Source: Paraspadella gotoi
Lineage: Eukaryota; Animalia; Chaetognatha
Direction of reading: 5' to 3'
Length of the DNA: 64,000 nucleotides
Assembly (NCBI GenBank): GCA_051294375.1
Contig: CM119269.1
Location: 10,165,056 to 10,229,055 of the forward strand
A program made the translations under genes and the position numbers. Within the stretch, counting starts at the first letter, position 1. Every line of letters begins with the position of its first letter. Below the pieces are notes generated by a model that saw nothing but the letters and a program-made list of their open reading frames with translations, searched no databases and was not told the origin of the DNA. Below, in pieces: positions 3,402 through 56,133 of the stretch.

Positions 3402-3879
3402 CTTACAAAAAATTTTTTAGATTATAATGTGGGTTCACTAATGTAAAAAATGATGCGGCGAAACAGGGCCGCGAACCCGGGTCCTTTGGGTAGAGATTAA
3501 GCTCACGCTACGTGCGGCCCATAAGTACTGCTGCATTTCTTTACGAGTAAAGGGCTGTAGAGCTTCTCTCTCTCTCTCTCTTTTAATTATTATAATATCG
3601 CTCTTTCCCTCTTCTCTTTTTCTCTGCAGCGGCTGTCTCTCTCCCTCTCTTTTTCTTCTCTCTCTCTTCTCTCTCTCTCTGTCTCTCTGTCTCTCTGTGT
3701 GTGTCTGTCCCTATCTGTCGATCTTTTCTTGTGATCGTTTTGTGTTTTTTTTGAAAAAATTCTGATTATTTCTTTTCCTTTCTAAAAACTTTTTATTATT
3801 GCCAATTTTATCCGCGCTTTTTTTCAATACAAAATCCCATATTTTCATCCGAGATTTTCGTGCATTTATCTCTTTTCTT

Positions 3880-7287: not shown

Positions 7288-7664
7288 TTAATCATAATTG
7301 GATGGTTAGATTGAGATTAAATTTTGTGTGTGGGTAGGAAAGTGTGTGATGAAGCTGGATTTAAAATTTAGATGGAATCGTGCAAGTGGAAATGAGTTTA
7401 GATGGAAAAAACATAAGACACTTTTATTTGAATCTTTTTAATAATTTTAATCCATAATTAATCGAATTAATCATAATTGGATGGATAGATTGAGATTAAA
7501 TTTTGTGTGGGTAGGAAAGTGTGTGATTGAGCACGATATAGTGGAAATGAGTTTGCATGGAAAAAACCAAAGTCAAGTTGACCCTGAATTTTTATTATTA
7601 TATGATTACTCATGAATGTTTTAATTGATTGATTAATTAATTAATTAATTAATTATTAAGTGAA

Positions 7665-8950
7665 AAATGATGCAATTTGAAAAAAATGATGCAAGTTAAA
7701 AAAATGATGCATATTGAAAAAATGATGCAAGTTGAAAGATTGTTGCAAGTTGAAAGAATGATGTAAGTTGAAAAAAAGATGCAAGTTGAAAAATGATGCA
7801 AGTTGATAAAATGATGCAAGTTGAAAAAATAATGCAAGTTGCAAAAAGGATGCAAGTTGAAAAAATGATGCAGGATGAAAAAATGATGCAAGTTGATAAA
7901 ATGATGCAAGTTGAAAAAGTGATGCAAGTTGAAAGATTGTTGCAAGTTGAAAGAATGATGTAAGTTGATAAATGATGCAAGTTGAAAGAATGATGCAAGT
8001 TGAAAAAATGATGCTATTGAAAAAATGATGCAAGTTGAAAAAAAGATTCAAGTTGAAAAAATGATTCAAGTTGAAAAAATGATGCCAGTGAAAAAAAGAC
8101 GCAAGTTGAAAAAATGATGCAAGTTGAAAAAATGATGCCAGTTGAAAAAATGATGCAAGTTGAAAAAATGATGCAAGTTGATAAAATGAATGCAAGTTGA
8201 TAAAATGATGCAGGTTGAAAAAATGATGCAGGTTGAAAAATGATGCAAATTGATAAAATGATGCAAGTTATAAAAGTGATGCAAGTTGAAAAAAATGATG
8301 CGAGTTGAAATAATGATAATGAAATAATGGTANNNNNNNNNNNNNNNNNNNNNNNNNNNNNNNNNNNNNNNNNNNNNNNNNNNNNNNNNNNNNNNNNNNN
8401 NNNNNNNNNNNNNNNNNNNNNNNNNNNNNNNNNNNNNNNNNNNNNNNNNNNNNNNNNNNNNNNNNNNNNNNNNNNNNNNNNNNNNNNNNNNNNNNNNNNN
8501 NNNNNNNNNNNNNNNNNNNNNNNNNNNNNNNNNNNNNNNNNNNNNNNNNNNNNNNNNNNNNNNNNNNNNNNNNNNNNNNNNNNNNNNNNNNNNNNNNNNN
8601 NNNNNNNNNNNNNNNNNNNNNNNNNNNNNNNNNNNNNNNNNNNNNNNNNNNNNNNNNNNNNNNNNNNNNNNNNNNNNNNNNNNNNNNNNNNNNNNNNNNN
8701 NNNNNNNNNNNNNNNNNNNNNNNNNNNNNNNNNNNNNNNNNNNNNNNNNNNNNNNNNNNNNNNNNNNNNNNNNNNNNNNNNNNNNNNNNNNNNNNNNNNN
8801 NNNNNNNNNNNNNNNNNNNNNNNNNNNNNNNNNNNNNNNNNNNNNNNNNNNNNNNNNNNNNNNNNNNNNNNNNNNGTGATGCAAGTTGAAAAAAATGATA
8901 CAAATTGAAAAAATGATGCGAGTTGAAATAATGATAATGAAATAATGGTA
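7665..8950. repeat. ~17-18 bp minisatellite (TGATGCAAGTTGAAAAAA)n spanning an N-gap, inside a HINE-family element
   Basis: Dozens of direct units. Shorter arrays occur at ~16058 and ~30745, and a related array at ~14990-15250. Confidence 0.9.
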
Positions 8951-11522: not shown

Positions 11523-11566
11523 ACGGACATGTTTCGGCTTTAGTCATACAAGCCTTCATCGGCGTC
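11523..11566 (-). ncRNA. Minimal type-I hammerhead ribozyme motif (Penelope pLTR-type, CCGAUGA variant)
   Basis: Minus strand reads GACG-CCGATGA-A-GGCTT..AAGCC-GAAA-CATG-TC-CGTC: stem I GACG/CGTC, stem II, and a palindromic ACATGT stem III. Confidence 0.7.
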
Positions 11567-11569
11567 AAA

Positions 11570-11688
11570 GAGGGACGGGGCGCTTAACTCGCCTGTAACA
11601 CGGTGTTACAGCCTGATCCGAAGCTCAGGGATTGCTTATATTGAACGGTTCTGTCACTAACACATAACAATAATTACTGTCTCTTCAA
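11570..11688 (+). ncRNA. 5'-truncated family-A element with twister ribozyme core
   Basis: GGG-A-CGGG-GCGC-T-TAA-CTC-GC-C-tgtaac..gttaca-G-CCTGA-TCCGAAGC-TCAGG followed by the family-A tail. Confidence 0.7.
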
Positions 11689-14700: not shown

Positions 14701-16157
14701 AAATGGAAAAAACAAAAGTCATATTTACCTTAAAGTATTTTTACTTAAATTTACTCATAATTATTATTGTTTATTAAAATTGGATAGATAAATCGAAATT
14801 GAATTGGGTGTGGTAAGAAAGTATGTGATAAAGCTGGATATAAATTTTTTGATGGAATCGTGAGAGTGGAAAAGAGTTCAAATTAGAAAACCAAAAGACA
14901 CACTTTATTTGAATTTTTTAAAGTTTCTCTCTCTCTATCTCTTTCTGATGATTGATGTGATTGATTGATTGATTGACCAAATTATGCCAATTGACAAAAA
15001 TATGCCAGTTGACCAATTCTTAAAGTTGACCAAATTCTGCAAGTTGATCAAGTTCTGCAAGTTGACCAAATTAGGCCAGTTTGATAAGAATTATGCCAGT
15101 TGACACAATTATGCTGGTTGACCAAATTATCTTAATTGATTAAATTATGTCAGCTGACACAATTATGTCAGTTGACCAAATTATGTCAGTAGACCAAATT
15201 TAGTAAGTTAACCAAATTATGTCAGTTGACCAAATTATGCAAGTTGACCAAGTTAGCTTATTACCATCTAATTATCGATTGACCTGGAATTTTGTATGTG
15301 AGTAGAAATGTGGTGATTGAACAGGAAACCAAGTTTCGATGGAATCTTTTGAGTGGAAATGAGTTTAAATGGAAAAAAACAAAAATCTGTTTCACTAATT
15401 GATTATGATTCTTTTTCCTTTTATATTAAATGTATATGCAGGAAGTATTAATAAATCAAATAATTAATTAGTTTATTAATAAATTATTCAATTAATTAAT
15501 CCATAATTAATTAATCAGTCAATCAATCCGTCCATCCGTTCCACCTTAGCAAAAAGATCCAATAAACTCGTGATTGGCTGGTTGGATTGCAATGAAATTT
15601 CGTGTGAGTGGAAATGAGTTTAAGTGGAAAAAAACATAAGTCGCATTTACTAAAAATATTTTACTTATTTTAACCAATAAGTTCTAATTAATCATAATTG
15701 GATGGATAGATTGAGTTCAAATTTTATGTGTGGGTATAAAAATGTGGAACGTGCTTGATATAAAGTTTCGATGGAAACGTATGAGTGGAAATGAATTTAA
15801 ATGAAAAAAAATATGAGTCACATTTACTTGAATCTTTTTATTTTATTTATACCCATAATAGATTGAGATGAATTTTGTGAGCGGGTAGGAAAGTGTGTGA
15901 AGAAGCTAGATATAAAGTTCTGACGGAATTGTGCCAGTGGAAATGAGTTTAAATGGAAAAAACATAAGTCACATTTACTCGAATCTTTATTATTATTGAT
16001 TACTAATTTATGATTACTAATAAATGTTTTAATTAATTAATTAATTAATGTGAAAAATGATGAATTTAAAAAAATTATGCAAGTTGAAAAAATGATGCTA
16101 GCAGAAAAATGATGGAAGTTAAAAAATCCTAAAGCATAAGGATCGTCGCAATTGCAA

Positions 16158-16402: not shown

Positions 16403-19400
16403 CCGAGATAAAAATTAGCGAATAAAAAAGTTGTTATTTTACTCACTGAATAAAAATACTTAAAATACTTACAAAATACATAAAATTGATAAAATTATTA
16501 TTCTGATAACATTGTTTAATCACATGCAATATATCTTGTAAGGCGGGCCAAAATTGAACACTTTTATAACTTCTAGTTCTCTCAAAAAAATTTCTTTTTC
16601 CTTTTACTACTAAATCGATTTTCAATGTAACTTTTTGAATTAGTTCATTGGGTTGTTGCTCTGAAGCTTTTAAATATTTTATTAATAATATAATAATTAT
16701 ATAAAGTTTTGACGGAATTGTGCTAGTGGAAAGGAGTTTAGATGGAAAAAACATAAGTGTGGCAGCAAGACTTAAAGCTGCCTCACTGCTGTCCGTCCTC
16801 AGCCTCGTCTCATGGCTGAGCAGGCTAAATCATCTCATTCCATCCGTGCGTCCCGGGTTCAATCCTGGGTATCCCGGTTCTGGCTTAAATGCGATCTTCT
16901 CTGCTTTCGACTAAAAAAAGTGCTATTTCTGAAACCTGTAAAATCTCAAAACAGTTCATGTGGTAGGTCAGCAAAATCCGATCAAAGATGGATTTTTTAA
17001 AATGCTAATTATAAATAGAATTAGTTTTTAAAAATATTTAACATATAAATATTTTCGTAGTTTTAGTGAATGTTTTTAATTTGAATGTCTATATATCTAA
17101 CATTATCTCTGAATCATGAGCTTTAATTTTAGACCTCACCCAACTTTCTACGATTTTATAACTTAAATCAGCTCAGAACATCAAACTGTGATAAATCATG
17201 CATGACATGTCGAAATTCTTCGCGCTGCTTCCTTATTTGAACCTAGTGAGGCGACTTACCACCGGTCTCTCTCTCTAAACCCTNNNNNNNNNNNNNNNNN
17301 NNNNNNNNTGCGTAATAATATCACAGTAACCAAATGAAGTCCGAAGCTCTCTTAATGCTTCCCATCGGTTGAATCCGAATATTTTTCTGATACCATCATT
17401 AATAGCAACATTAATTCTGTTTCATGTCTCTAGCCAAAAAAGATTTTACCTCCATAGCCATATAGTAGTTATAGGACACAATTTGTATAAAACAATTTCA
17501 ATAGAACATCTTCAGATGGTTTATACAAAGCATTAATTTAAACAATTTACTAGATCGATATAAAGATGAGAGTTCTTTGCTGAGTGTAGAAGACGAAAAA
17601 TAGTAATAATAAAAGTAAGAAGGAAGGTGAAGATTGTGACGATGTAATTGGAAGTAGAAAAGTAAGTGATGTCTAAGCTTCTCTCGCTGTGCCACTCTTT
17701 ATCATGCCGCCGGAGCCACTTGACCTTGACGTCGCCATCCGGCGCTTATTACTCGTGTTCGCGATCAATCTAAGGTAATTGCCAAAGCTGCAGGGCAAAG
17801 TGAAGCCGTGTGGATTTGACCGGCTCGGAGAACAGAGGAGAGAGCGAAGGGTTCTTTAACTTTGTTTTGTCTTTAGACTTAGCTTTGTTTTTATGCTTAT
17901 GTATGTACTGAATCAACCTTGTTGTATTCAAAATAAAACGCATATTCGCCTCCCTACCCGGGTTTTAGCCCGGTGGTCGGCTCGGGGCGCTTTACCCGCC
18001 GGTAACACGGTAACACAGCCTGATCCGAAGCTCAGGGACTGCTTATATTGAATGGTTTTGTCACTAATTCAGCGTCCTTCAATCGAAACTAAAGTCAGCC
18101 AGCAAATAAGTGAACGAATCGAGAGAGGCACAAACAAATTGCGTTATATATCAATTAATTAATCATCTGATTAACTGCTTATCGCTAAATGATCGTAAGC
18201 ATATCCAGCTATGTTTGCTCCAAATTGTTACTTTCATCTTCAACTGCAACAAGATAATGATAAAACTAATAAACTAAAAATGGCTAAATAATTAAATGCA
18301 CTTTTTATATTTTTGATTACAGAATTTACTACTTGTACTCCACTGAAAGCCTATACTTTTGCTTGGTGTTTCAAATATGGGCACATTTTAGATGAAGATG
18401 GATGCCCGACAGAGAAATGTTATGATCCTTGCGAGGTGCAGTATGAAAANNNNNNNNNNTTGAAATGTTTTATCATTGTTACCCTTGTATGACATTGTGT
18501 ATTATAAGGAGTTGTGATAATAGTATTTGCTTCAAAGTTGCAACACAATTTAAATTAAATTAATCAAAAGATTAAAATAGAGATCTCTTTTTCAGGGTGT
18601 TCAATGCGGGGAATACTTATTTTGCGATGCAGATCCTTTTTATAACTGCTCGATGCCTTGCTCTAATCCAAACCCAACTTGTATATTTGAGGTAAAAGAA
18701 TTTCAATTCAATTTTTGAATTTCAGCTCTTTTTTCCAAAAGCGGCCCATTTTCGTTCCTTAATCCTTGATAATGAGGTTAACCTTATAATTAAATTTTAA
18801 TCTGTTATTAAACTTCTAACTAAATCAATAACTTTAATTTCTAATCTTCAACATAATCCTAACTTTATATTTAAAAGATTAATCTTTTACCTTAATTATC
18901 TAAATATAAAGCAATATCCTTAACTGTAATCCTTAAACTTATCCTAAACTTTTATATATAACTTAATTGTTAACTTAAATAATTAAGCTTAAAAATTATT
19001 TTAATTCCGAATTGAAGATGAAATGGGGCGCTCTGGGAAAATAAGGCCGGAACTTCCGAAGGGCTTTACAGGAAATCGTGCATTAATTGAATAAACAGTT
19101 TTATGGTTCAAAATAACATCAAGAGAGAGCTAGAAACATAGTTAATAAAATTATTGATTAATTTAAGCAAAAATTAAACACAAAGGTTTAATAATATATC
19201 AAAATAAAGCACTAGGTATCCTCAACTATCATTTAAATTAGTTTTCAGTTTGTGATCTCCTGTTCATTGCGTTAAATTTTCAGATTTTGGTTTTAATGAC
19301 TATTAATTTTTTGTTTATATTAAACTATGGTGGACTAAAATCCACCAACCGTTCATCAGCGGCCATTGGTGCCGGAGGCAAGTCATTCGCCTCCCAACCC

Positions 19401-22400
19401 AAAGGTCCGGGGTTCTAGCCCGGTGGTCGTCTGGCAGTTAAGAGGGACGGGGCGCTTAACCCGCCTGTAACATGGTGTTACAGCCTGATCCGAAGCTCAG
19501 GGACTGCTTATATTGAACGGTTCTGTCACTAACACAATAATAATCACTGTTTCTTCAAAACCTTAATATTTTTTTAATCTTTGCAGAAAAGACACTTTTG
19601 TCGGACCTCTAATTGGGCTCCGGATCCACTAATGAGAGACAATGTAACAATATTTACTTGTGATGGGCTCACTTTAACTGGATGTCCTCCGGGTTACAGA
19701 TGTCAGATCGAAGGTCTGAACCCTAATGAAAAAAATGATGGGTTTTGCTGCCCGGAGTTTGGTAAGATTTTGTAATCTTTGCTGTCATTCTTCAAATATT
19801 TTTTTAAAAAATTTGTCATAACTAATGTATTAAGATACAGCCATAATTTTTAGAAGCGTCAATGATGTTTAGGTTCAGGTCAGTGATTAAGGTTATTGGT
19901 TAGTTGAGAATTTGTTTAAAAAAATAATAGTAAAATTAAGTTTTGGGATTATGGAACTGAAATGGGACGCTTTTGAAAAGAAATACCAAATTTTAACTAA
20001 AATTTTTTGGGGTAATTCCAAATATCTCTGTTTTTAAAAAATAATGAAGTGATAAAGTAAAAGTTAAATAATAAAATAATCCTAATAATATATTTGTTTT
20101 ATTAGAAATTAACTATTTTTATTCTTCTTAAGACGCAGAGACAGATCACGCTTAATTTGCTTCCCACCCTACTTATGATCATTTTTACTTCACTCGTCGC
20201 CATATTTGATTCATAATCTTTTAGCTATAGTTGTTGTTTGGTACTCGGAGACCTAAGGTACTGTCTCCATGAGCGTTAACCGCCCGCAAGAAGGGCAATA
20301 GGGTCAGGAAAAGAAGAAATCTGACAAAAAGTCCAGAAAAATGCTTATAAAAAATTGTAGTAGCGTTATGTTAGGAGCCTTGGTTACCTTACAAATATAC
20401 ATAATGAGCTTTAACAATAGATATTCATTATCTCCAGAAAAAGAGCAATATTTCAGACCCATTAGTAAATATTTTTTTATCTGGGAATAGTACAAAATAT
20501 GCAAATGAATGATGATACTAGAATTACAAAAGAATTTTTTCTTTTTATCTATATTTGAACTTGTTCATTGTAATAGATCATCATCATCAACAGCAAAGAT
20601 TTTCAAAAAGATTTTTCAAAAGAGCAATCTTTTGCCAATATGCATGATAAATTTGGCTGCTTAATAGGCAAGAATAATATGCTTAATTATTTTTTAATTA
20701 TTAAAGAAGATAGAATAATTCAATATTTGAAAAAAAAATTTTTGTGTTCAGAAATTTTGGATCTAGACTATGAACCAAAATTTTGCATTTTGAAAAAAAT
20801 CAGATTCAAGGCATTTGATTTTGGAACAATCTGATGTTTTTTGTTTTTTAATATCTTTATTTTTTATGCAAAACTAAAATTCTGAATGACCATTGGTCAA
20901 GAAGAATAATTTTTTCCCAAATCTTTAAAGAAGTAAAGCATTGCTCAAATTGAGAATATTAAATGTTTTATATAAAAAAAATAATAAAAGCTTAAAATAA
21001 AATAGAATTTGAAAAATATATGTTTGTATTTGTATCTATTTAAAATTGTAATATGATAAACAAGCAGTGGGTCAAGCTTTTTGTTTCCAGTTAAAAATAA
21101 TGAAAAATGATTATTTTTTTTCACAGACAAAAAGGTAGACAACCAAACTGTTTATATTAAACTTTTAATTTATAATTTTACATATTTAAAATAACATTTT
21201 ATCATGCTACTATATGTATTTTGGCTTGTTTTTTACTTTAACTAAAAAATATATGCAAATTTATGGAGTAAAAGAGCTTTATTGGTAATCAAAATGTAAT
21301 TCAATTTTTCTTTTTTCCAAATCTGAAAGAAAAACAAAAAAAATTATATGCCTTCATTAAAATTTTTAACTCCGAAAACTGTTATACTTTTAACTAGGTT
21401 TTAAACAAACCTTGTCTTAACATTTTTGGATAAAATTTATAGAAACTAGTTCAGAAAGGTGCCCCATGATTAGGGCTTTAATTTTATACCTCGCCCACCA
21501 TCCTATCTCTTTTCTTTCAAAAGTTATGCTAAAAATTAACTTTTTTTATCATCGGAGAACTAAGGATTTGAACTACGCAGTACAAATCTTAATTAAATAA
21601 AAATTTTGGCAAAGCGGGAATATCTATATTTATCCTATTTGTATAATACCTAAATTTCAAAATAAAAACTAAAGAAAAATTTTTAATCATCTAGAGACAT
21701 ATCACTTTCAGTTATACCCATCGTCTTACTCGTTTATGGCTTATGGTTTAAGAATTCAGAGAAATAAAGTATCTAGTCCAAATTTCAACTTTTACACTGT
21801 ATTTTACTGTATCATTCTAGCCAAATCATATTTTGCATGTATTTGTCCAGCATAACTGTCAGGAAGGAATGGCTTGTTAGTACAAATGGTCAGACAAAGT
21901 AAATTCAATGACCGATAATTTTTTTTTCGTGCACATGAAATTAAGCGTGATCTGTCTCTGCGTCTTAAATAAATTAATTTATAAAATAAATGAAATAACG
22001 TTAATTTTACTTTAGCCGACCAGGGTTAAAGGTGAGGGTTAAGAGGAAAGGTCATTCAGCATAACAATATGTAATCATTGATGTGTTAGAGCTAATATAT
22101 CGAGAAATACATTATAGTCATCAGTAATCACAAAAAAATAAGTTCTTATTATATGTAAACATTCCGTTTTCAATAATTTTTTTAAATGGTAAATAACAAA
22201 ATGTTAAGTTAAATGGGTTAGCACATTTTTTAAAGATTAGTTTTTAATCTGATTGTTAAAAAATTCTAGTTAAGAAGTTAAAACACGGTAAGGATAATTA
22301 AAAGGGGAGAATTAAACAATTAATCTTGTTACTTCGTTTGGTTTCCAGTCATGAACAAAATCTTCAGTTAAATAGATGGTAAAGAAATTCGAGCTACAAT

Positions 22401-25400
22401 GAATCTACACTGAATTTGAAGAGTTGCAGCCTAAACGACTGCAATAATATTGAATTAAAAATTTGATTAGCAATCTAAAAACATTTGTAAAAATGTAATA
22501 GAGAGACATTTGATAAACGCGTTCCAGTTAGAAAGAATTCAGGGTTAAAGTTTAAAAACGTTTCATTTTCAAGGTTACAAGTTGAAATTTAAAAATGTCT
22601 CTCTATTACATTTTTCTAATTCAGTAATAAAAAATTCATAAAAAATATCATATGGATTGGTCTTTTCGTTTGACCTGCAACTCTTCAGATAGGTTTCTTT
22701 TATTTATATTATAATTAAACCGATATAAAATGGGGTAGAATGCATCAAATGCTTAAAGTGGATACATTTTCGGAATCGCCAGGACTCAGCTTTCTGAATT
22801 GTACTCCATTTTAGCCTATTTGAAGTTGAATTGAATGACCCTTTTTCTTAAGGGTGGTTTGGGGTGGTTTAAGGTTAGAGTGGTTAAGGTTTAAAGTGTT
22901 AGTTGGGAAATAATTTTATTAATTTTATTTTAAATATAAATATTTTTAAGTGTTTTTCAAAGACGCCAAAACCCCTGTCGGTGAAAGTAAAATTTAACTA
23001 ATGTATGCTATGATAATTATAAGGTTAGATAGCATTATGCATCCTTTATTTCTCAGACTGTAGAGCTCAATATTACGGATATACATATCGGGGGATAAAA
23101 TCTACTACAAGCGAAGGATATAAATGTCAAGCATGGAACACTCATACACCTCAACGGCATTCGTATACACAAGACAGCGATTTTTTGGGTAAGCTCAACG
23201 CTTTTCCTCATAAGATATAAGAAAAAATAAAAATATTGCAGTTTTACAACATAAAAAAAGATTTATAGATTACTTTCATAGTTATACCGTTTTTGCAGTT
23301 ATCTGCTTTGAATAGCCATAGCCGATTAAATTTAAATGCTAATGTATACCACGTTAAAATAATCTATCATGAGCATAGATTATAGTGTTAAAATATTTTT
23401 TGTCAAAAATTATTTTTTGTTAGAGTACTCGCCTAATCAAAATTATTATATTACTATATAAAAAACATTTTTATGGTGAAATCTTAAAATTTTTTAATGG
23501 ATTCTGATAGAGCATTAAAAGTTAAACAAGAAATATAATACAGTTTTTAAAAATTCTTATGTTTTCTTAGTAAAATTTTTAAATACTGATAAAATCATTG
23601 AAAGATGATAATGATGATGATTTTTTACAGTTTTTCTTATTTTTGACCTACTTATAATAAAAATTTTTAAAAAAGATTTATACTTTGTGCAGATAACTTT
23701 TTATGAGCTATCTGAATCTGGTCTTAAAAAAATTTTTGGCCTTTCCTATCTATAATAAATATTAAAATATTAATTACTAGGGTATAGAGCCATATAAAAA
23801 AATTTTGTTCATTGAAAGTATACTTAAAATGTAAAAATTTTCGTTTAAGCTTGTACTCACTCTAAATTTTTGACTTACCCCATTGAGTGCGGCTACCCAA
23901 CTTTAAACAATCTATCTCGTATCTCTGTCGTCCTTTATTTTAAAACCAAGACAAAGATCCTTCATTTGATCCCAAAACGAGGTTTCAAAGCCAAATATTA
24001 TAGAAGCTATACTTTATTAGTCGGATCTGCTTGTCAGCAGATCCCGTCACTATAATTGACTTTGTCGGTCCGTCAGTCCGCCCCCCCAATCTTGTCGGGA
24101 ATTCGCTTATATCATGTCAGAACATCGAATTATGATAAATTATGCAAAAAAAACGATATCATGATAGATTATTTTAACGCTGTATACATTAGCGTTTAAA
24201 TTTCATCGGCTATGGCTACCAACACAGAGTTGTGGAAAGGATAGTGGTCAGAGGTGAGGACAGGCTGATAGTAAGGACAGATTGAGTGAGTTTGAAAAAT
24301 AAGTGAAAATGATTAGAGAGAGAGAGTGAAACAGTTGGTAAATAATACATTGTGCAATGTACAATAAGGCGTAGTAAAATTTCTAAATTTGACTTTAATT
24401 AAAATTCTCTCTCTCCTTACCTTCACCTGTCCTCAATCTGACCACTGTCCTTATCTCAACCTTTGTTGGAAGCTTTATCTCTCTCTCTCTTTTCTCTCTC
24501 GCTCTGTCTCTCTCTCTCTCTCTCAATCTCTCTCTCTCTCTCTCTCTCTGACTCAATGTTAAGAGAAAAATTTGTCTGATTAATCAAACGCTGATGAAGG
24601 CTTATACTTAAAGCCGAAACATGTCCTATGTAAAAATAAATCGTTGTACATAAACAAATAAACTTTGTCTTTCTCTAATTAAAATTCTAAAAGTGAGGAA
24701 CAAATAATATTATACTAATGAACATTTATGTAATAAAAAAAATTATAATAAATTTTACAATTTATGCAGTAGGCCATATTTATACTAGTACTAAACCAAC
24801 AAATGTTAAATTTCAAAACAGTTTTTTCTAAATTTTTTTTCAAATTTGGATTCGTCATAAAAAGTTGATAAAAAGAAATATAACTCTTTTTGAAAAATTC
24901 CTTCATTAAGTGGGTCAAAAATTAGAAAAAAGCTATATTTTTAAGCTGAAAATTAACTTTTTATTATTAAATATAGTTTTTTAATTTTAACCACTTAATA
25001 AAAGAATTTTTAAAAATGATTTATATTTTCTTTTATCAACTTTTGACGAGAAATTCAAATCTGCAAGCAAAATTAAGAAAAGCCTATTTTGAATTTTTCG
25101 ATTTATAAGGATAAGTACTATATAATAATACAGCCTACTGCGAAAATTAAAAAACATAAAATAATTTTTTTTTACAAATTAATGTTCACTGATGGTATGT
25201 TGTTCATATTTAACTTTTAGATTTTCGTATGTAACTTTCACTACGCCTTAATGTACAACAAATATATAATTTTGAAAACTGAATAATAATTAAATGTTAA
25301 CAATTAACTAATAATAAATAAATCAATAAATCAATAAATGACAGAGAAAGAAAGGTTGAAATTTGAAAAAGATACAATTGGTGAGGGATAGCTAAGTAAG

Positions 25401-28400
25401 TGATGAAGTGAAAGTTTAAGAATTAAGATAGAGCTAAAAAATGAGCTGGCCCTCATTGGTTATGTAAATGAAAGACCTGATCGATGAGGTCGGATCATGT
25501 TCGTTATTGTTCTAAAAAATAAAATCACGGTGACGCAAGACCTTGAACTTGCTGGTTCTTATATTTTTCCTAGTGGCCTCGATTCAGCCTCAAATTTTTG
25601 CCGAAATCCTGGCTGGGAATATACTCTTCCTTGGTGCTACTCAACGTTTTTGCCTGAAGGAGAAACAAATAGAAAAAAAGTCTGTGGAGTTTTGTCCTGT
25701 AATCCCTTATGGCCTGATTTTAAAGGTACAATTTTTTAGAATTTTTGAAAAAAAATTTTTGTATATGTAATTTTCTGGCTACTAACGGTTTATCACCAGC
25801 ACTAAAATTCAGGCCATCCCTTTTGTTGAATTGTGTTGACTAGCTTCCTTGAATGTCTTCATTTTTTGAAACAAGATTAGATCAAGTTTTTATTTTCTGT
25901 ATTACGATTTTTGGTGTTTGTTATAAATATTTTTTCTTAATTTTATTAGTTCTTTTAAACACAATTATATCCACTAAAAGGATGACAACAAAATTTAAAT
26001 AATTGAAATAATTGAAAAAGAGTTGTCAAAAGTTTTTAGCAAAACCCAACTTAAATGTTAGGCAAACTGACCCTTAGACTAACCAAGAGAAGATTAATAC
26101 AGCCGTGCTTAATATTCAATACACCAGCTTATGTTTTAAGGGATTTTAAACTAAAATTATGCTTCGTTATCTGTTTTAGGTGTAATTAGACATTCCTCTG
26201 GACTCTGTTTTTCGCTTGAAAATAACTGGCCAACGTTTATACCAACTTGTCACAAAAAAAATCAGATAACCATAATCGATGGTTACTTCAGGATGATGTT
26301 TTTAGTTGAGAGACTGTAAGTATCACAATTTTCTGGAGCTCCCCTTATCCATTTCTTTATTCTTTTTTATTATTTATTTTTTATCTTGTATTATTTCCTT
26401 TCTTTTCGTTGTGTTTAGAAATTAGTTTACAGAGTAGGAATTTTTATTTTCATTAAACAATGGTTAAAAAAACCGTTTTAACCGTTGTTCAATAAAAAAA
26501 AATCTTATACTTTGTTCATCAGCAGGAATTGGTGCAAGTCAAAGGTCCGGGGTTCTAGCCCGGTGGTCGCCTCGCAGTTAAGAGGGACGGGGCGCTTAAC
26601 CCGCCTGTAATACGGTGTTACAGCCTGATCCAAAGCTCAGGGACTGCTTATATTTAACGGTTCTCTCACTAACACATAAAAGTAATTATTGTCTCTTCAT
26701 TGACGAGCCCAACTTCTGAACACAACAGCAACAACAACACTTTCAGGCAACATGCCTCAACTTGGCGACACACTTTCCGCCAACAACACATCAGGCAACA
26801 TGCCTTAACTTGGTGACGAACTTTCCACCAACAATTCACTGAAGAGACATAACAGATTTCTCCCTAGGGGAGGGGGGATGTATGGTGGACTAAAATCCAC
26901 CAACCGTTCATCAGCGGCCATTGGTGCCAGAGGCAAGTCATTTGCCTCCCAACCCAAAGGTCCGGGGTTCTAGCCTGATGGTCGCCTAGCAGTTAAGAGG
27001 GATGGGGCGCTTAACCCGCCTGTAACACGGTGTTACAGCCTGATCCGAAGCTCATGGACTGCTTATATTGAACGGTTCTCTCACTAACACATAGCAATAA
27101 TTACTGTCTCTATAGTTTTAATTTTATTCCTTATACAATCCCAAAACCCTAACCTTATTCTAATCCCAAACCCTGTAACCTAACCTTGATCCTTAATCAT
27201 TAACCATATTCTTCAACCTCATCAACCAACCTTCAACAATAATCCTTACCTTCTGGTGGTCCTATCACCACAGAAGGATTAAAGCTGTTTCTTTCGCAGC
27301 GCCTCAGTGGCTCAGTGGACTAATGCACCATCCCAATGTGCGTCCCTGGTTCGAGCCCTGAGGTTGTCATGTAGAAAGTGGGATGGACCGGGTAACCCGC
27401 CTGTAGGCATGGGCCTACTGCCAGATCCAAAGCTCTGGACTACATGAACATGCTATTTCGCTGTCGCCACGAGGTGACACCGCTGCGGGTGTGGCGCCCT
27501 GTAAAACCAGCCTCTTCAACCTAACCTTATTCCATTACCTAATGATCTCTAACCCAATCCCCGTCCTTCATCATTACCCTAATTCATAACCCTAATCCAA
27601 AACTTATTCATCAAATTTACATAAAACAAATTTAATTTGGATTTTAAGCAGATATGGGACGCTTATAGAAAATATGGTCGTGAGTAAGATTACAACTAAG
27701 TAAGATTAAGTAATGCACACTGCAGTTGATTTGCCATAGTAAAATTTGCAAGATTAATTTTTTATAAATAAATTAGTTACACAAAGCGGAAAACCCCACT
27801 TTACATTTTTATATCTTCATAAAAGTTAGATTATCCTAATTACGTATTACAAATTGTTATTGTTTAAAGAAATCAAAGCAAAGACAAAGAAAATAAATGG
27901 CAGGTAATTATTATTTTTCAGATATTCAATAAAAATTATATAAATAACTATATAACAGGTGCGCTATGAAGACTACTTATTATCCAAGTGCTGGAGACTT
28001 TTTGTCTGTACAATCATATTGTCTTAGCTACTACAATCGTCGTTTTTACAAACCAACAGGATCATTTGAGGTAACGAGTTTGAGGCCCTTATATCTATAT
28101 AAGACATAAAAATATAATTTAAAAAATATTCGGAAAGTATCTCCAAGCTGGTATTACGTGTAAATAATTGGTTAAATTTGTCATGTCAAATATGCAGTCT
28201 TGTCTCCTAACTTCCTAACAGATTATGTCGGATCCAACAGTTTATCAAACAATCTATCAAACAATTTAATCAGGATATATAATTTTATTAATGTAGATTA
28301 ACAGCGGGTTTTAGTTTCACATTTCTTTCATGAATATTTAGGAATCGGGGGGAGTTTGCTGGAATCTTGAAGAATTTATCAACCTAGATACTGGAAAAAC

Positions 28401-29571: not shown

Positions 29572-32500
29572 GATCAGACTATGTCTTTCTCTTTCTTCAA
29601 ATTGTTTTTAGTTGGTTATTATTTTAAATTTTTACTGCGTTGCTATCTTTTTTCAACTCATGAAAAAAAAATTTGACAAAATATATATCTGGCAAAACTG
29701 TTTTTAGTCAGATCTGCTTATCAGCAGATCCCGACTCTATAATTCACTTTGTTGGTCCGTAGGTCCGTCCCCTCAATATTGTTGGGCATTAACTTATATC
29801 ATGTCAGAACATCGAATTATGATAAATTATGCAAAAAAACGATGTCCGTCCATCCGTCCATCCATCCGTCCGTCCGTCCGTCCCACCTAAGCAAAAAACT
29901 CCAATAGCTCGTGATTGGATGGATGGATTGGAATGAAATTTTGTGTGTGGGTAGGGAAGCGTGTGATTGAGCTGGACATGAAGTTTCGATGGAATCGTCC
30001 GAGTGGAAATGAGTTTAAATGGAAAAAAAAATTTAATTATTTGAATGCCAATTACTCATGAGTGGATGGGGCGATTGACCTGAAATTTTGTATGTGGTTA
30101 CGAAAGTGTGTGATTAAGCTGGATATAAAATTTCTATGGAATCGTCCGAGTGGAAATGAGTTTAAATGGAAAAAATAAAAAACCTGTTTCACTAATTGAT
30201 TATGCTTCTTTTTCTTTTTCCTTTTATATTAAATGTAAATGCAAAATGCATTAATTAATCAAATATAATTAATACAGTTAATTAATCAATTAGCCAATTA
30301 ATTAATCAATAATTAATTAATCAGTCAATTAATCAATCAAAACAAAGATTTCGGATCAAATTAATTAATTAATTGCCTAATTAATTAATTAACTTGAATT
30401 AATTAATTAATTAATTAATTACCAATAATGATCGTGGGCAGATCCGACATTGTTTGCTCAAACTTGTTAATTAAAGGTCTGAATTCTCAAAATGAAATAC
30501 TTTCTAGTTGCACTGCAGTGCATGTCATAAATATGCATAGTAAATGCGGCATATTTTGATTAATGTCTGGTTGTTTGAAATGAAACTTAGCACAGAAGTG
30601 ATAAACCATATGGCATTTTGTTTAATTGGCCCTTTTTAAAGTAATTAATACTAATGATACATATTTGTTATGCGGACAACCATTTTCTAAAAAAATTTAG
30701 TCGGATCTGCTTATTAGCAGCTTAAAAAATTATGTAAATTAAAAAAATTATGCAAGTTGAAAAAATGATGCAGGTTGAAAAAATAATGCCAGTTGAAAAA
30801 ATAATGCCAGTTGAAAAAATGATGCAAAAATTGAAAGCATTATTGTGATTTATCATCTGATTAGCTGATTACCGCTTAATTATCTTAGGCAGATCCGACA
30901 TTGTTTGCTCAAACTTGTTATCTCATCATTCAGCTGACTGATGAGATACTTTCAACTCTTGGCAATTATTATAAAATATTATCTGTATAAAGAGAATGTC
31001 TATTTCTATAAACTAGTCGAGTGTTTCGATAAACAATAATTATAAGTTATTTTATCTGTTTTTCAAATATCATTGTTATACAAAGTTACATACATGTTAC
31101 ATGATTATTAACCATTGTTAACAATATTAAAAAAGCTTTTCTATCAAATTTAGGTCAACTGTTCAGTCCCGCCATCTAAATGCGAAAGGGATCAAGTGAG
31201 AGCTGAACGAGCCAGACGTCTCATGGAGGCAGAAGATGCTGAACTTGCCTTTGTACCTGATTGTCTTGATGACGGAAACTACAATGTTACACAATGTCTA
31301 CGTGAGTATTCATTTGTAAGAAAGTAATACATTTTTCTGTTAAAACCTAAATAAAGAACTAAACCTGACATGTTTTTGAGAAAAAAAAAGTATCAATTAA
31401 GAAATTAACTATAAAATGGTTTTCATTTGACGCAACTTTCACTTTTTTCTTTCTTAATCTTTTATTTTAAGGTAAAAAAACTTCTTGATGGGAAAAATTA
31501 GTAGGTCTGCATTAAAGTGTAGCAAAAAGTATAAATTTAACTTAAATTAAAATTCTAAAAGTGAGGAATGAACAACTTAACTAATGAACATTAATGTATA
31601 ATTTATATATAATTTTATATATTATTTAAGCAAATGCTGATGAAGACTCTCAACCACAGAGTCGAAACATGTCTCTATGAAATAAAAATTCGTTGTTATA
31701 CATTAAAAATCTGTTATTCCTTAAACACAAACACAACGAAAAAAAAAGAATCACAACAATGTCTAAAAATTTTATTATATTTTTTTAAAATTTACGCAGT
31801 AGACTTTATTTATATATAGTACTAAGCCTATAATGGTAAAATTTCAAAATGCTTTTTTATAAGATTTTTTTGCAGATTTGGATTCGTCATAAAAAGAAAT
31901 ATAAATCTTTTTTAAAAATTATTTCATTAAGTTGGTCAAAAATGGAAAAAACCTATATTTTAAGCTGAAAATTAAATTTTTGTATATTAAATATAGTTTT
32001 TTTAATTTTTAACTTACTTAATGAAATAATTTTTGAAAAGAAGTTTGTTTTTTTTTCAACTTAAACTTGACGAGGAATTTAAATCTGCCATCAAAATTAA
32101 GAAAAGTCCATTTTGAAATTTAAGATTTTTTAAGGATAGTACTATATATAAATATAGCCTACTGTGAAAATTAAAAAACATAAAATTATTTTTTTTATAA
32201 ATTAATGTTCACTGGTGGTACATTGTTCATAAATGACCATTAGAATTTTCATACATGACTTTCACTACGCTCTAGTCTGCATTACTAAGTATGTACATAC
32301 TATTCTACTTTTTAAGAAATCCTATAAAAATTTAAGGTTTATATAAATAATAAAAATTTGTCTCTGATATTCACAACGCAACTGGCATTTTCCTTAGCCA
32401 CTGGTGAATGTTGGTGTGTCTTTGTTTCTGGTACGCCAAGAAACGCTTCCCTCGTGGCGCCACCCAATTGTGACATTTGGACAATTGTGTCTGTTACCTT

Positions 32501-35799: not shown

Positions 35800-36327
35800 G
35801 ATGAAATACTTATCAATGATCAAAGCTTGTAATTTTTTGGCGGTCAACAGAAAGAGAATTATAATATATAGTTCTTACGTCAGTGACTCACATCTTGTCT
35901 AAATGACAACTTTTAAAAACTACATGGAAATAGGCTTGTTGAATGTCTACTATAAAATTATTGGTACTCCTCTCAGATTTATTCTTTGTTTTTTGCCAAA
36001 AAATAAATGATCCTGTATTTTTATAAACTAATGTTTTTATTAATAAGATAAAAAAATTATAAATACATGATTTGTCTCATGAATGATCATTTAATAATAA
36101 AAATTTTGCCTTTATTGTTCATCCGACTATTCTCCTATTGTCTCACTGCAAATTAAAGTGGCATAAATAAATTTTCGTTCATCTTATTTACAAAATTGCT
36201 TGAACCAGATTAATAACATTAATAACAATAACCTTACTAAAGTTAACCAAAGTTACTAAAATTTAGCTCTTCTTGGCAGTTTATGCTCTTTGCCGAAGTA
36301 TCAGATAGAATATAAAATAAAAGTGTT

Positions 36328-36372
36328 ATGGTGGACTAAAATCCACCAACCGTTCATCAGCGGCCATTGGTG
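36328..36372 (+). repeat. 5' fragment of family-A element
   Basis: Identical to the first ~45 nt of 19327. Confidence 0.8.
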
Positions 36373-41000: not shown

Positions 41001-44000
41001 CATTATGTGGCAACTTATTCACCATCGCCACCCGCCTGAGTCCATCAGGTGGCGTAAGAGCGAGAATTCTCTCTTCCCACCTAGCGGTTTATGGTTCGCG
41101 CCCCATTGGTTTCTATGTTAGTAAGCGGGACGGGACGTCTAACCCACCTGTAGTTCCAAAGTTCTGAAACAAGCAGATAACAGGCGGTAATTTGTCCTGT
41201 CGTGTGGCACTAAGCGTGACGGTATCTGTGTAACCGCGCCAGTGGCATCTGTCGCTAAGTTTCCTAAACCCCCAATTACCACCAAGTGAGATACTCTACC
41301 CAGCTGGGAATTACTGGCAACCCGACTGTCGCTAAGATCTTAACCCACTATAGCTGTCTCACACCTCACGTGCAAACGCCCACTCCATCCGTCCGATTCA
41401 GGTATTGTCACAAAGAAGAAAACGCGGACTATCTTTACTTACCCTGTTCCGTCTGCGAGATCCGCGCTTGTCACATGTGCAAAAGATTTTGCTACAAATG
41501 CGCGCGACTAATTTGCATCAATTGCCTCCTGGTCAAGCAGAAGACCGGACGGTGAGTTAAAATCGAATGCTTGCTATTCGCCTGGTCGTTCATTGATTAG
41601 TCTCTGCTTTATTTCTTTAAAAAATGTCAGGAAATATTGTCACGACTGTTTTCAAGAGTCGAAACTGAATGAACGGGAACTCAAGTGCGAAGTCTGTTAC
41701 ATCAAGGTTTATTGATTGTTTGATTGTTTACTTATTTGTTGATTCATTTCATTAATTATTATTGGTGATTAACATCGTTTTATGAGGAAAATGCATATTA
41801 TTTTTATTTAAGCAATATATTTCGGTTAACATTGCTTAACCATAGTTCATTTGCGAAGTAAATGCAAGAAAAACAGTCACAAAAAAGTAAAAAAAATATT
41901 TTGGTTAAAAGAGAGAGAGAGAGAATAAGAGTGAAAAGAAACATGAGGTCAAAGTTAAGGACAAAAGCTCAAGAGAAAGAAAGAGAAAGAACCCCCCCCA
42001 TCTTCAATAGTCTTTTAGTTTTTGTAGAAGAGGATTCCATGCGTGTGTTTTTACATATCTAGAGAGATCATCGTTGAGGCCTTTTCCCGGGTCTGTCCCT
42101 TGACGACGAATCTCCAGGCTCTCACGAACATGCAAATTGAATTCAATTTTTTTTCGGTTTTTGTTTGAAAAAGTTGCAAGAACCACAGGGTCTTCCCAGG
42201 CGATTTCACCTTCGCAAGATTTTGCATGTTTGCTAATTCCCGACATATTCTGGCTGTCGTGTGAAGATGCGTATTCTCTTCGATGTTGTGCTGTGCGCTT
42301 TTTTATTGAGACGCTTGTTTTTCCAACGTAAGAAGAGGCGTTGTTGGGTGGGGTTTGGCAATTACAAGAAAGCTTATAAACCCCTTTTCTATCAACCAAA
42401 GGTGGTTGTGTTTTGTTGGGCCCACACAACAAATTGGCTAGTTTGGGACCTGACTTAAAAAAAATGCGACAATCATGTTTTTTAAATACATGTCTAAGTT
42501 TGTTACCAATAGATTGGCAAGAGGTAGGATTTCAAGTGAGACCAGTATTGGAACATTTCCGGTAAACTGAAGTTGAAAGAGTTCCATCTTCATTTCGAGA
42601 AAGAAGACAGTCTAAAAAAGCGAGTTTTTTGTGTTCTTCTCTTTCTTTCTCTTGAGCTTTTGTCCTTAACTTTGACCTAATGTTTCTTTTCACTCTTATT
42701 CTCTCTCTCTCTCTTTTAACCAAAATATTTTTTTACTTTTTTGTGACTGTTTTTCTTGCATTTACTTCGCAAATGAACTATGGTTAAGCAATGTTAACCA
42801 AAATATATTGCTCAAATAAAAATAATATGCATTTTCCTCATAAAACGATGTTAATCACCAATACTATGTACTCATACCGCATATACGATGACTCTCAAGT
42901 AATTAATTATTATTATATTGATTAAGTGAATTGATTGCTTGATTGATAGAATGATTTTTAATTGATATTTTTATTTGTTGGTTCAATGATTAATCATTAT
43001 TTTTTATTAACAGATTGATTGATCAAATAAGTTACTTATAGATAAAACAATTAATTGATTGCTTTATAGTTTATTGCCTGATTTATTGTCATCGTAGACG
43101 GATATGGAAGAGCGGGTGATCAGTTGTTGGAGATGCTTCAGCCTCGCCTGCATGAAAACTTGCGCCAGGTAACGAGATCAGTCGGTCTGTCTGTCTGTCG
43201 ATATATCTGTTAGGCTCACTGACTGGAAGTCCGTATGTCAGGCCATCAATCAATCTATAGTTTGGTCAATCTTTGGGCGAGTTGGCAACTTTGTCGGGTA
43301 GTCGGTTTATTTGCCAGCCGGTCCACAGTCAGGCAAAGCCCGACACCCTCTCCCTAACGCCATCTGCCTGACATCCTCTGTTCGACACCATTTGCCCAAC
43401 ACCTTCCACCTGACAGCATTTGCCCGACACCTTTCACCCGACAACCTTTGACCAACACCCTCCGCCAGACACCTTCTGCCAACACCTTCCGCCTGACCCC
43501 CTTTGCCTGACACTCTTTGGTCGAGGCCCTCAGCCCGACACCTTTCGCCAGACACTGCTTGATGCCCTCTGCCCAATACCTTTTGCCCAACGCTTTCTGC
43601 CTGACACCCTCTGCTTGACACCCTCTGCCCAATACCCTGTGCCCGATAATCTCTGCCTGACACCCTCTTCCCAACAATCTCAACCCTACACCTTCAGCCC
43701 AACACTCTCTGCCCGACACCCACTGCCCATTATGCCCACTGCCCTAGTGCCCAACACCCTCTTCCGGACACCCTCTGCCCGACAGATACACCCTGGATGG
43801 TTACATGTGTCGTCGCTGCCTTCAAGACTTGAAGGAGCAAGAGGAAGCGAGGAAGAGAGAAGCGGAGGGAATAGAGGCTGGGACCAATTTTGGTGAGATG
43901 ATGTTGTGATGATTGTAATGACGATGATAATAATGATGATGTATCGATTGCTTGCTTTAAAATTGATAATAAAAAAATCATGACGATGTTGGATGATTAT

Positions 44001-46843: not shown

Positions 46844-47094
46844 CTCGTCAGGGACACATGTTGAAAAAGGGTTGTTGCAGACGACGAAGGGCGAGCTTCG
46901 GGCGGAGAGCCTGACCTACGAACAAATGAACGTCGACGCGATGGCGCTCAGGTCGCTGCCCCTCTGACTTATCTCTTTGGAATTGAGGATATTGCCTGGA
47001 AACGCGCAATAGATTTTTTATAAACGAGATAAAGACTACCTCTCAAAATAAATAAAGGATTTTTCTAGCGACCCTCGGAAACCCAGATGGAGCA

Positions 47095-49740
47095 ATGATG
47101 CCGATGGGAACAGAGCCTCGCACGCTCGGGGTGGTGGAGGAAAGTTTCGAGGTGATCGATCACGGCGAAGGCGACTTCCGCCCGTCGATTCGAGAGAGAG
47201 CTCTAGACAACGAATACGAGGAACGCCTGGATAACCGTCCACGGTCATCGGAAAACGGAAACGACGTCTTCGTGGACGCGTCGGCCGCTCGCCCGGCGCC
47301 CTTGTCGATGAACGGAGAATCGTCAAACGCGGAGACGTTTACGCCGAGCACTCGGCGAACGTCCAGCAAGAGTTCCATGAGTTCGCGACCCAGCCTCGAC
47401 CAGATCCGATCGTCGCTGATGTACTCGCTCAACACCCAAGAGATCGAACCGCGCGAAATGGTGGATCGATTGTTGATTCTCCTCAGCGAGAATCGTCAGC
47501 AGCGGGAGAAGATGAAGCGACAAAACGTTAGCTTGCAGCAAGGCGTCGAACGCATTCTCCAGCTGCGGGAGGAAAATGCTAAGCTTATAGAGCGGGACCG
47601 CTTCAACTTTCAGCGGACCAAAGAGCTCATCGAAAACCTGAAGGGAGAACTTCGAGAACGGGATGCCCGTTTGGCAGCCAAGGATTCGGAGATCGTCGAG
47701 CTGAGTCGCTTCAGAGTAAACGCCGCCGATTATCTACAAAAATACGAGAACGCCGTTGCCCGAGTAAAACAACAGGATGCTGAGCTGACGAAGAAGGACA
47801 AGGAATTGAAGGAATCCAGAAGCCGATTGGAAAGGAGGGACGACGTCGACAAAGTCTCGCCGAGTTCAGATTCGGACGCCGACGCCGCGGCCGAGTTCGA
47901 ACCTGTCGCTGATCAAGGAGACTTTATCCTCGAACTCATGGACAAGACAAACCAGCTGGAGATGCAGAAGACGGCGCTCACCGAAGAATTAGAAGCGAGC
48001 AAGAGGCGCGCCAAAGAGTATCTGGCCGAGCTGGAAAACAAGCGTCAGGCCGAATTTCACAGGGATACAGAAATGATCGGACTTAGAGACACCATCGACG
48101 AGCATAAACGAGAAGTTGCCGTTCTGAAAAAACAAATCGAAGAATTACAACGGCATAATACAGACTTGACCGAAGAATCCAATGTCAAGGACCTCATGGA
48201 TGCCGCCCAAATCGCAATGATTGCGGAAGAAAAGACTGTAGTCTCCGAAAAATCGATGGCCTACGACTCGGCCGCCTCTATCATCCCGACAAACGAATTG
48301 TTGGAGAGAATGGAGTCGTTGCGCGCCGAGTTGGAGGCGACGAAGAAGAAGGAGGATGAGCTTAAATCGCAACTCTCGCTAAGAGAAACCCAATTGCTGC
48401 AGCAAACGCTAAAGACGGAGGAGATCGCCGGACTCCGGGCACAAGTCGTTTCACTGGTGGAAGAGCTGTCAAAAACAAAAGAGGAGAGAACGCGCGCGAA
48501 GGCGTTGGAGCAAGAGTACGAGAGATTCAAGACGCAGAAAGAGATCGACGAAGAACAAAACCGATCAATCCTCGCGCAGTTCAAGCTCGAGCTGGAGGCG
48601 CAAATGGAGCGAGCCACGCGCGAGTTAGGCGAGGCGTCAGAAGCTAAGAGGGAGCTGCGTAGCGTGGAAAGGGCGTTGGAAGCGGCGAAGAAGGACTTGG
48701 CGGAGAAGGAGTCAATCATAGAGTACTTTCAGTCGCAGAGTAGCGATGGCGCCGATCAGAGGCTTCTTTTCGCTGAGCAAGAGCTGAAGAAGTTGCGCTT
48801 CGAGGTCGATCGCCTTACGGCGCAGGTGAGAAGAGTATATATATATATATATAGTTATATTGTACAATTATAAATTCGCCTTCCCTTTCCCATTTGGCCT
48901 TTTTGTGTATAGTCATTGGCAGCAGAAGACGTCATTAACGAAAAAGATGAGCAGCTTTCGCGCGAACGAAAAGAAAATGGGAAACTACGCGCCAAGGTAG
49001 AGGACATAGGAATGCTGCAGGCACAGGCGCAAGTCTACAAAGAAGATTTCGAGCAAGAACGACAAGCCCGCGATAAAATGGCGCGAGAGAAGGAGCAAGT
49101 AAAGACGGAAAATCAGCAGCTGCACGATCAGATCGCTCACCTAAACGACTTGGTGCAAGGCGCCACACAGTTCGTCGGGGTGACCCAACCCACGCCCTCC
49201 AGTCCAGCGGCGAACGGGACCTTCCCGCGAGCGAGAAGTCAAAACTCTGGATTAGGGGAGCCGAACGGAAGACCTCACTACACGCTGGCCGACAGAGAGG
49301 CGGCGGCTTCTCATGGCCGCTTCGCGCCGCCGTCGACTCCGCCTGGGATTCAGAGGGGCTTGATGAACGGGGCATTCGCCATGTCGAACGGATCACCGAG
49401 ACCCGAGAGGTCGTTGATGACCGACGGAGCAGTTGGAAGGAGCGCGACGACAGCGAGAGTTGAGGACACATTTCTAACGCCTGCGGAAAGTGGAGCCGGA
49501 GCGGAGGGCCGGAAAATCAGCGTTCTCGTGCCAAAGTCTCCCTCGACGCATCGCTTGACACCGGAGGAGCCAACCCCGACCGCGACAACAATGTCGGAGC
49601 TTTCTCAGTCGCCCCTTGAAGTTTCCGACGAGTGGCAACTCCTTCGAGAAGATATGGAGCTGATTTGCCCGAAGTGTCGTGCAGGGGTTTCTACAATGGA
49701 TTTGCTTCAAGTTCATATTTTGGAGTGTTTAGATAGTTAA
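47095..49740 (+). CDS. NEMO (IKBKG)/optineurin-family ubiquitin-binding coiled-coil protein
   Basis: Exons 47095-48825 and 48913-49740. Long coiled coil, UBAN motif QAQVYKEDFEQERQARDKM, C-terminal CPKC..LQVHILECL zinc finger, N-terminal EESFEVI LIR-like motif. Confidence 0.88.

Positions 49741-50290: not shown

Positions 50291-56133
<5,843 letters not shown>

Follow-up and report, generated by a model that had tools for sequence, protein, structure and literature searches.

Among the self-cleaving RNAs of animal repeats are small type I hammerheads that are gated by palindromes. In the axolotl hammerhead, a single base pair carries a tetraloop that is palindromic, and cleavage is better in dimeric constructs (PMC7229834). 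The same palindromic-loop rule is set out in PMC4209133, with the rationale that multimers are cleaved while monomeric circles avoid cleavage, and hammerhead elements of Schistosoma are described as cleaving in cis or trans (PMC6765202). Twisters form another ribozyme class, the permutations of which are reviewed in PMC5408937. Here, we describe a 64,000-nucleotide (nt) stretch of the genome of the chaetognath Paraspadella gotoi (contig CM119269.1, positions 10,165,056 to 10,229,055; hereafter the window), in which three families of short repeats, A, B, and C, carry a type-P5 twister-like core with a small family-specific palindrome in place of the P1 hairpin. We favor the reading that pairing between copies is what this palindrome is kept for, yielding a strand-swapped double twister, and give it slightly better than even odds (a probability of roughly 0.55).

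Twister-type cores with a palindromic P1

The cores follow the pattern G-N-GG-GA-NGG, a 6-nt segment, UAA-CCC-RC, and then a hairpin with the loop UCCN-AA-GY, which is matched five times in the window and in none of 100 dinucleotide shuffles. Eight such cores, six in family A and one each in B and C, were identified by BLAST together with a covariance model, and the covariance model scan of the window returned no ninth. The register was taken from Rfam RF02684 alignments of control loci; in this Twister-P5 consensus, P1 begins after GAGGG and stops at UAA. Read in this way, the B core, which lies on the plus strand, is composed of the following parts.

27367 to 27447, plus strand: B twister core, elements in type-P5 order
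27367-27374 with 27440-27447, plus strand: P5
27378 and 27380-27381 with 27396-27398, plus strand: P2
27382-27383, plus strand: GA at the catalytic position
27384-27386 with 27427-27429, plus strand: pseudoknot T1
27387 to 27392, plus strand: P1 segment ACCGGG, with palindromic CCGG at 27388-27391 and no closing pair
between 27393 and 27394, plus strand: predicted cut, placed from the U-A site in the UAA loop (PMC8501958)
27399-27400 with 27432-27433, plus strand: pseudoknot T2
27403-27418, plus strand: P3
27421-27425 with 27434-27438, plus strand: P4

The catalytic-position G and A and the UAA are invariant across the five aligned intact copies, and the GA is lost in a decayed A copy (17944-18067). 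A structure alignment of 10 rows (the six A copies, B, C, and two metagenome loci described below, L223 and L217) has 82.7% of its cells paired, with changes on both sides in 13 of 28 pairs against 0 of 500 shuffles, values that are inflated by kinship among the rows. Cells of T2 are 100% paired, with GC/GC replaced by AC/GU in C, L223, and L217; those of P4 and P2 are paired at 91% and 83%, respectively, and P2 carries a bulge in the window copies. T1 reads CGG/CCG in A and UGG/CCA in B and L223, with one mismatch in C and one in the A copy at 26597, while P5 is clear in A and B and weak or absent in C. Overall, T1, T2, P3, P4, P5, and the P1 tetramer show compensatory differences between A, B, and C.

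Rfam scans gave no twister match, either in the window at E values up to 1 or in 200-nt stretches around A and B at E values up to 10; the window copies and L223 receive no Rfam twister score, and L217 reaches 17.3 bits against a gathering threshold of 37.6. When the same descriptor was applied to viral contigs, it picked up four distinct phage loci whose P1 hairpins are long (L009/L080, L074/L110, L083, and L019). These score as Twister-P5 at 41.6 to 51.4 bits, above the threshold of 37.6, indicating that the core anatomy has been read correctly. Neither a type-P1 nor a type-P3 twister was found in the window by descriptor. Judged from sequence, the window cores are a real twister variant that is invisible to Rfam, with cleavage as its predicted activity. 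They are not filed as RF02684 members, as the P1 hairpin is missing and the Rfam score falls short, and twister function is what we infer for them. The missing Rfam matches would also suit a view in which the cores are no ribozymes, but a twister-like scaffold or a DNA-level palindrome acting as a protein-binding or recognition site for mobilization. This we consider highly improbable: the catalytic residues are invariant, both pseudoknots covary, the descriptor also retrieves true Twister-P5 members, and a DNA-binding site would not vary in sequence while keeping its symmetry alone.

A preliminary description of the window had placed three different 4-nt palindromes where P1 should be, each too short for a hairpin. 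The tetramers lie where they were reported, GCGC at 19452-19455 (A), CCGG at 27388-27391 (B), and ACGT at 41135-41138 (C), but the boundaries need correction, and the statement that no hairpin fits does not hold strictly. In the Rfam register, the "N" before UAA and the last base of the supposed T1 strand fall inside P1, so that the segment is 6 nt long: GGCGCU in A, ACCGGG in B, and GACGUC, a perfect 6-nt palindrome, in C. Such a segment allows 1 bp at most within one strand, which would close over the palindromic tetraloop through a G.U pair in A and a G-C pair in C; B has no such pair. Between strands, the flanking pair lengthens the palindrome to 6 nt in A (by a wobble), C, and L223. GCGC is found in five of the six A copies and GTGC in the remaining one. 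The three tetramers are distinct, but they cannot be counted as independent, because the families share a common core, B-box spacing, and a CG center, around which the outer pair alone varies.

A broader view of this pairing comes from L223, which was retrieved by a metagenome scan with the tetramer left free and a linker of 3 to 16 nt (120 of about 140 stretches were returned, from 53 of 64 parts). Most of the 120 metagenome loci are chance matches. A scoring model built from the window copies alone, with P1 left unpaired, ranks L223 first among them at 25.4 bits. Its P1 is AUGCAU (tetramer UGCA), both pseudoknots are intact, P4 is present, and a microsatellite lies close by. Across A, B, C, and L223, the outer tetramer pair occurs in all four Watson-Crick states (G-C, C-G, A-U, and U-A), and the inner pair, which a single strand cannot form, switches from C-G to G-C in L223. 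P1 cells are paired as a palindrome at 96.7% in the 10 rows, L217 included and kinship again inflating the value. Under neutral drift from a shared ancestor, the chance that B, C, and L223 would all remain palindromic is approximately (1/9)^3 = 1.4e-3, and with full independence of the four palindromes it would be 1.5e-5.

The metagenome loci were also a blind sample for palindrome enrichment. Of the 11 loci whose segment is 6 nt long, 4 have a palindromic tetramer (binomial p=0.0035); control palindromes occur in 6 of 83 distinct loci with other segment lengths (Fisher 0.015) and in 2 of 53 viral chance matches (Fisher 0.006). The latter served as a null set: viral contigs gave 92 matches with a 6-nt segment, 53 of which were distinct after parsing, and none had the full structure. 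A stricter pattern added 4 further chance-like matches in viral contigs, and none of the 5 matches to the 6-nt-segment pattern in prokaryote species genomes had a convincing fold by eye.

Proposed pairing between copies and its alternatives

In the proposed dimer, the self-complementary 6-nt P1 would form a helix of 4 to 6 bp between two copies (6 bp in A and C, 4 bp in B), and the halves would be swapped, the 5' half (P5 strand, P2 strand, GA, and T1 strand) joining the 3' half of its partner (UAA, P2, P3, and P4/L4). The cut is predicted at the U-A of UAA, with the catalytic-position G supplied by the other copy. Within one tandem, rolling, or read-through RNA, an ordinary type-P1 twister would arise from the 3' half of copy n together with the 5' half of copy n+1; since a single sequence then provides both P1 strands, only a palindrome permits this pairing. 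Multimers or crowded RNA would be cleaved fast, and lone linear or circular monomers more slowly. Cleavage would also be family-specific, since P5 and T1, which differ between A and B, must match as well, and cross-family pairs should fail. The control logic would be that described for double hammerheads.

The preliminary description had already proposed that P1 forms between two copies and had drawn the analogy with hammerheads. In layout, the analogy holds exactly (PMC7229834, PMC4209133). Its further suggestion, that single intronic copies would stay largely silent, is less secure, because published twisters tolerate loss of P1 (PMC5408937, PMC11662667). The proposal of pairing between copies receives partial and indirect support: tetramer covariation, the blind enrichment, and the cost of closing P1 in a monomer argue for it, and we also count in its favor that hammerheads with a palindromic stem III share the window with families A, B, and C. 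In a nearest-neighbor energy model without pseudoknots, closing a 1-bp P1 in the monomer costs 3.9 kcal/mol in A, 2.2 kcal/mol in C, and 4.3 kcal/mol in L223. The swapped dimer is favored by 8 to 12 kcal/mol over a pair of open monomers compatible with the twister fold; by dimer energy, the native tetramers place 3, 3, 11, and 8 among all 256.

Several observations weigh against pairing between copies. Any palindrome would bring a favorable dimer energy, which is no independent evidence, and in the same model the swapped dimer lies 3 to 9 kcal/mol above two minimum-energy monomers. For the neighboring A copies (26570-27067), ViennaRNA, for which pseudoknots are outside the model, assigns P1 pairing between copies a probability of 0.000. 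The 64-kb window contains no head-to-tail tandem of cores, and no copy starts at the predicted cut site. B is without the flanking pair, the window families keep the CG center throughout, and the inner-pair change depends on one outside sequence, L223. The metagenome evidence has its own weak points. One palindromic locus, L152, was rejected as a chance match antisense to a permease ORF (open reading frame), which leaves 3 of 10. Two others are ambiguous and were left uncounted as members: L144 (386-472, minus strand; AGCGCU, tetramer GCGC), second by the model at 23.6 bits with the aid of its GCGC match, and L151 (325-386, minus strand; GAAUUG, tetramer AATT), an AT-rich locus that contains microsatellites and, farther downstream, another L4-like loop. 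In addition, a structure-count score failed to separate L223 from chance (L223 was 20th and C 85th of 123), and two chance-looking loci tie A and B at a score of 15.

Published work on twisters adds a further difficulty. In the env22 twister, P1 is reported to be dispensable, with a near wild-type rate in its absence (PMC5408937), and in the CHiTA survey of type-P1 twisters, imperfections in P1 left cleavage unlowered (PMC11662667). With such tolerance, a monomer may cut. Each copy would then fold and cut alone, P1 being one pair plus a tetraloop or two pairs plus a 2-nt loop, and the palindromes would reflect an inherited CG center with one covarying intramolecular pair. As 1 bp with a tetraloop, the 6-nt segment is sterically able to form the bridge, all three window families have the CG center, and the window data alone are explained by one covarying pair around a CG loop. 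The chance of the inner-pair data under this model, approximately 1/12 (1/4 for a self-complementary center times 1/3 for L223), is not small. We nevertheless regard this alternative as unlikely: a free tetraloop would leave both the palindromes of four lineages and the blind enrichment unexplained, and the flanking pair is absent in B. In nucleic-acid structure work, two-base loops are reported as restricted to pyrimidine-purine closing pairs, whereas the A and C tetramers would close a 2-nt loop with a purine-pyrimidine pair; this is the sole further point against the version with the shorter loop.

Pairing between copies thus remains our preferred reading of the palindrome, which may speed or direct cleavage without being required for it. 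That the dimer is obligate, with monomers nearly silent, we suggest only tentatively and at less than even odds; it is the less certain step because P1 is dispensable in published twisters.

The host repeats, their setting, and the origin of the module

The cores lie within the following elements.

19326 to 19556, plus strand: A, full-length; 5' leader hairpin, A box at 19367, B box at 19411, core at 19433-19507, P1 segment GGCGCU at 19451-19456, tail pairing with the leader
26881 to 27111, plus strand: A, full-length; P1 segment at 27006-27011, T1 strand UGG, a single P4 mismatch
26540 to 26696, plus strand: A, damaged head; P1 segment at 26591-26596, L4 UCCA, next A core 415 nt downstream
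11568 to 11684, plus strand: A, 5'-truncated; P1 segment at 11579-11584
17944 to 18067, plus strand: A, decayed; P2 strand and GA deleted, GCGC retained
52562 to 52760, minus strand: A, diverged; tetramer GTGC at 52653-52650
36327 to 36372, plus strand: A, head-only fragment; 5' end identical to that of full copies
27295 to 27512 (ends approximate), plus strand: B element, one copy in the window; made up of a tRNA-like head, then a twister-type core, and a structured tail
27308 to 27358, plus strand: tRNA-like head of B; A-box-like motif at 27308, B-box-like motif at 27348, closed by a 7-bp acceptor-like stem
41005 to 41262 (ends approximate), plus strand: C element, single copy in the window; A- and B-box-like motifs at 41050 and 41093, core without P3, P1 segment GACGUC at 41134-41139

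The tRNA-like heads of A, B, and C all contain A and B boxes spaced 40 to 44 nt apart, with acceptor-like stems in A and B; no tRNA gene was called in the window by ARAGORN or Rfam. The B box is followed by the core after 33 nt in A, 32 nt in B, and 34 nt in C, and these heads and the common spacing point to a shared ancestor. Family A has dispersed copies with common ends and 5' truncation (six core copies and the head fragment). Neither target-site duplications in the A flanks, inspected by eye, nor, within the window, a partner long interspersed nuclear element (LINE) sharing the 3' tail was seen. From their sequence features, the three families are tRNA-headed repeats resembling short interspersed nuclear elements (SINEs), with transcription by RNA polymerase III (Pol III) predicted. 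The A leader extends approximately 40 nt upstream of the A box (19326-19366), begins at a base common to three copies, and pairs with the 3' tail at 19511-19522; such an upstream stretch would be missing from a plain monomer transcript made by Pol III. Runs of T4 are absent from the elements, as they are from 39 to 75% of shuffles. A further tRNA-like head (3440-3525, minus strand; B-box motif at 3477) has no twister core downstream.

Two neighboring A cores lie 415 nt apart, with the B core 381 nt further on, all on the same strand. In the six A copies, T1 differs at just two places, and these two changes are reciprocal and fall in this sole neighboring pair (26586-26636 and 27001-27051, plus strand): alone, the copies have a C.A mismatch and a U.G wobble, and swapped, both T1s are perfect. 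Both changes are common CpG transitions, and the post hoc chance is approximately 2/30.

The window data are also compatible with a different history, in which the twister module is an inherited passenger. It would have been taken over from an autonomous retroelement, at whose 3' end partial tandems may provide the pairing partner, and would no longer cut or matter in the dispersed copies. In a relative, L217 (90-325, plus strand), this core lies at the 3' terminus of a decayed ORF that resembles a retroelement gene; its P1 segment is longer, with two palindromes, GGCC and AGCGCU, inside it. By eye, 5 of 20 retrieved proteins (P0001, P0002, P0003, P0010, and P0015) end in peptides matching frames across the L217 core. 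The shared peptide motif, assigned by no database search, resembles the restriction-like endonuclease of HERO-type LINEs. The L217 protein had no Pfam or PDB assignment, the Atlas search gave unnamed eukaryotic clusters with zf-RVT as a weak lead, and no partner locus of L217 was present in the viral contigs. Several copies in the window carry damage (a T1 mismatch each in C and in the A copy at 26597, the GA deletion at 17944-18067), and the copies retain both sides of the cut site, which implies that the template RNA was uncut or religated. However, the compensatory differences between A, B, and C imply that selection acted once the families had separated, unless they took the module from different donors, and the common head-to-core spacing of 32 to 34 nt favors a single capture. 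Individual genomic copies can be expected to decay in repeat families of any kind. We consider a passenger origin quite unlikely. A donor of the A, B, and C module was not found. In the text available of an account of Naiads (PMC8557442), canonical hammerheads are reported as absent, and the word "twister" occurs 0 times.

The surrounding window is AT-rich (G+C content of 22 to 50% per 2 kb) and contains many repeats, including dispersed families of approximately 140 to 150 bp and tandem repeats of 18 bp and 14 bp (7650-8330, 15015-15290, and 30650-30840; 43310-43740). Minimal hammerhead motifs of type I, in which stem III has the palindrome CATG, are located at 24591-24625 and 31637-31672 (plus strand) and at 11524-11562 (minus strand); the last is slightly decayed and lies, inverted, directly beside the 5'-truncated A copy that starts at 11568. 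At 47056-49740 on the plus strand are coding pieces of a NEMO/optineurin-like gene (CC2-LZ and a C2H2 finger), and those of DPY19 occupy 56942-58341 on the minus strand. A GIY-YIG endonuclease fragment (42004-42531, minus strand; Pfam E=0.001, below the cut-off) has a stop at its end and is flanked by inverted repeats (41757-41987 and 42637-42866) of 94 to 96% identity.

Comparison with known systems

The literature search, to which the Roth et al. 2014 alignments and the CHiTA supplement lay outside coverage, found neither a natural dimeric or palindromic-P1 twister nor a twister in a tRNA-derived SINE. The only mention of a twister dimer in the available text of PMC5408937 is a crystal dimer artifact, and the word "dimer" is absent from the main text, as available, of PMC8501958. 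Palindrome-gated dimer hammerheads and type-P5 twisters are known; a palindromic-P1 twister in SINE-like repeats, as the sequences suggest it, would be an addition to them. The most far-reaching version of this proposal is that animal retroelements independently made a second ribozyme class an obligate strand-swapped dimer, common across invertebrates and invisible to Rfam, with a family-specific palindromic P1 that allows cutting only when copies of the same family meet, so that monomers and circles are spared for retrotransposition and multimers are processed. We put this forward as a doubtful, although not far-fetched, possibility. A natural dimer-gated twister would, if true, be a case of convergence on hammerhead-like control in an unrelated fold and would give a concrete job to P1, which is conserved yet reported as dispensable. 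It would also expose animal twisters missed by Rfam and provide a small, family-orthogonal, concentration-sensitive ribozyme.

The window cores resemble type-P5 twisters (RF02684) in element order, the GA-NGG strand, the UAA cleavage loop, the L4 loop UCCN-AA-GY, pseudoknots T1 and T2, and stems P2 and P4. They differ at P1, which is an 8-bp hairpin in the consensus and at most 1 bp with a palindromic tetraloop here; phage P5 twisters likewise have long P1 hairpins, and the bulge in P2 is a feature of the window copies.

Among retroelement ribozymes, the T-variant twisters of Perere-3 RTE retrotransposons (PMC8501958) also have a weak or missing P1 and belong to an animal retroelement. However, they are of type P1, lie at the 5' end of the element, and obtain one strand of P1 from the target site, whereas those of the window are internal, of type P5, and encode P1 as a palindrome. 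SINE-like elements of Schistosoma (PMC6765202) are likewise short noncoding repeats in which an internal self-cleaving ribozyme follows a Pol III-type promoter, but the ribozyme is a hammerhead rather than a twister with a palindromic P1, and their tandem arrays are not seen in the window.

A further close parallel is provided by the dimer-cleaving type I hammerheads of amphibian satellites, retrozymes, and Penelope-like elements (PMC7229834, PMC4209133, PMC6765202), which are also animal repeats with a cut-site helix of 1 to 2 bp and a palindromic loop that forms a duplex between copies. The minimal stem and palindromic loop beside the cut site, as in double hammerheads, are present in A, B, C, and L223. 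The two systems differ in ribozyme class; in the hammerheads, stem III is needed for activity, whereas P1 of twisters is reported to be dispensable, and the dimeric hammerhead repeats are mostly arranged in tandem, whereas the A, B, and C copies are dispersed in the window.

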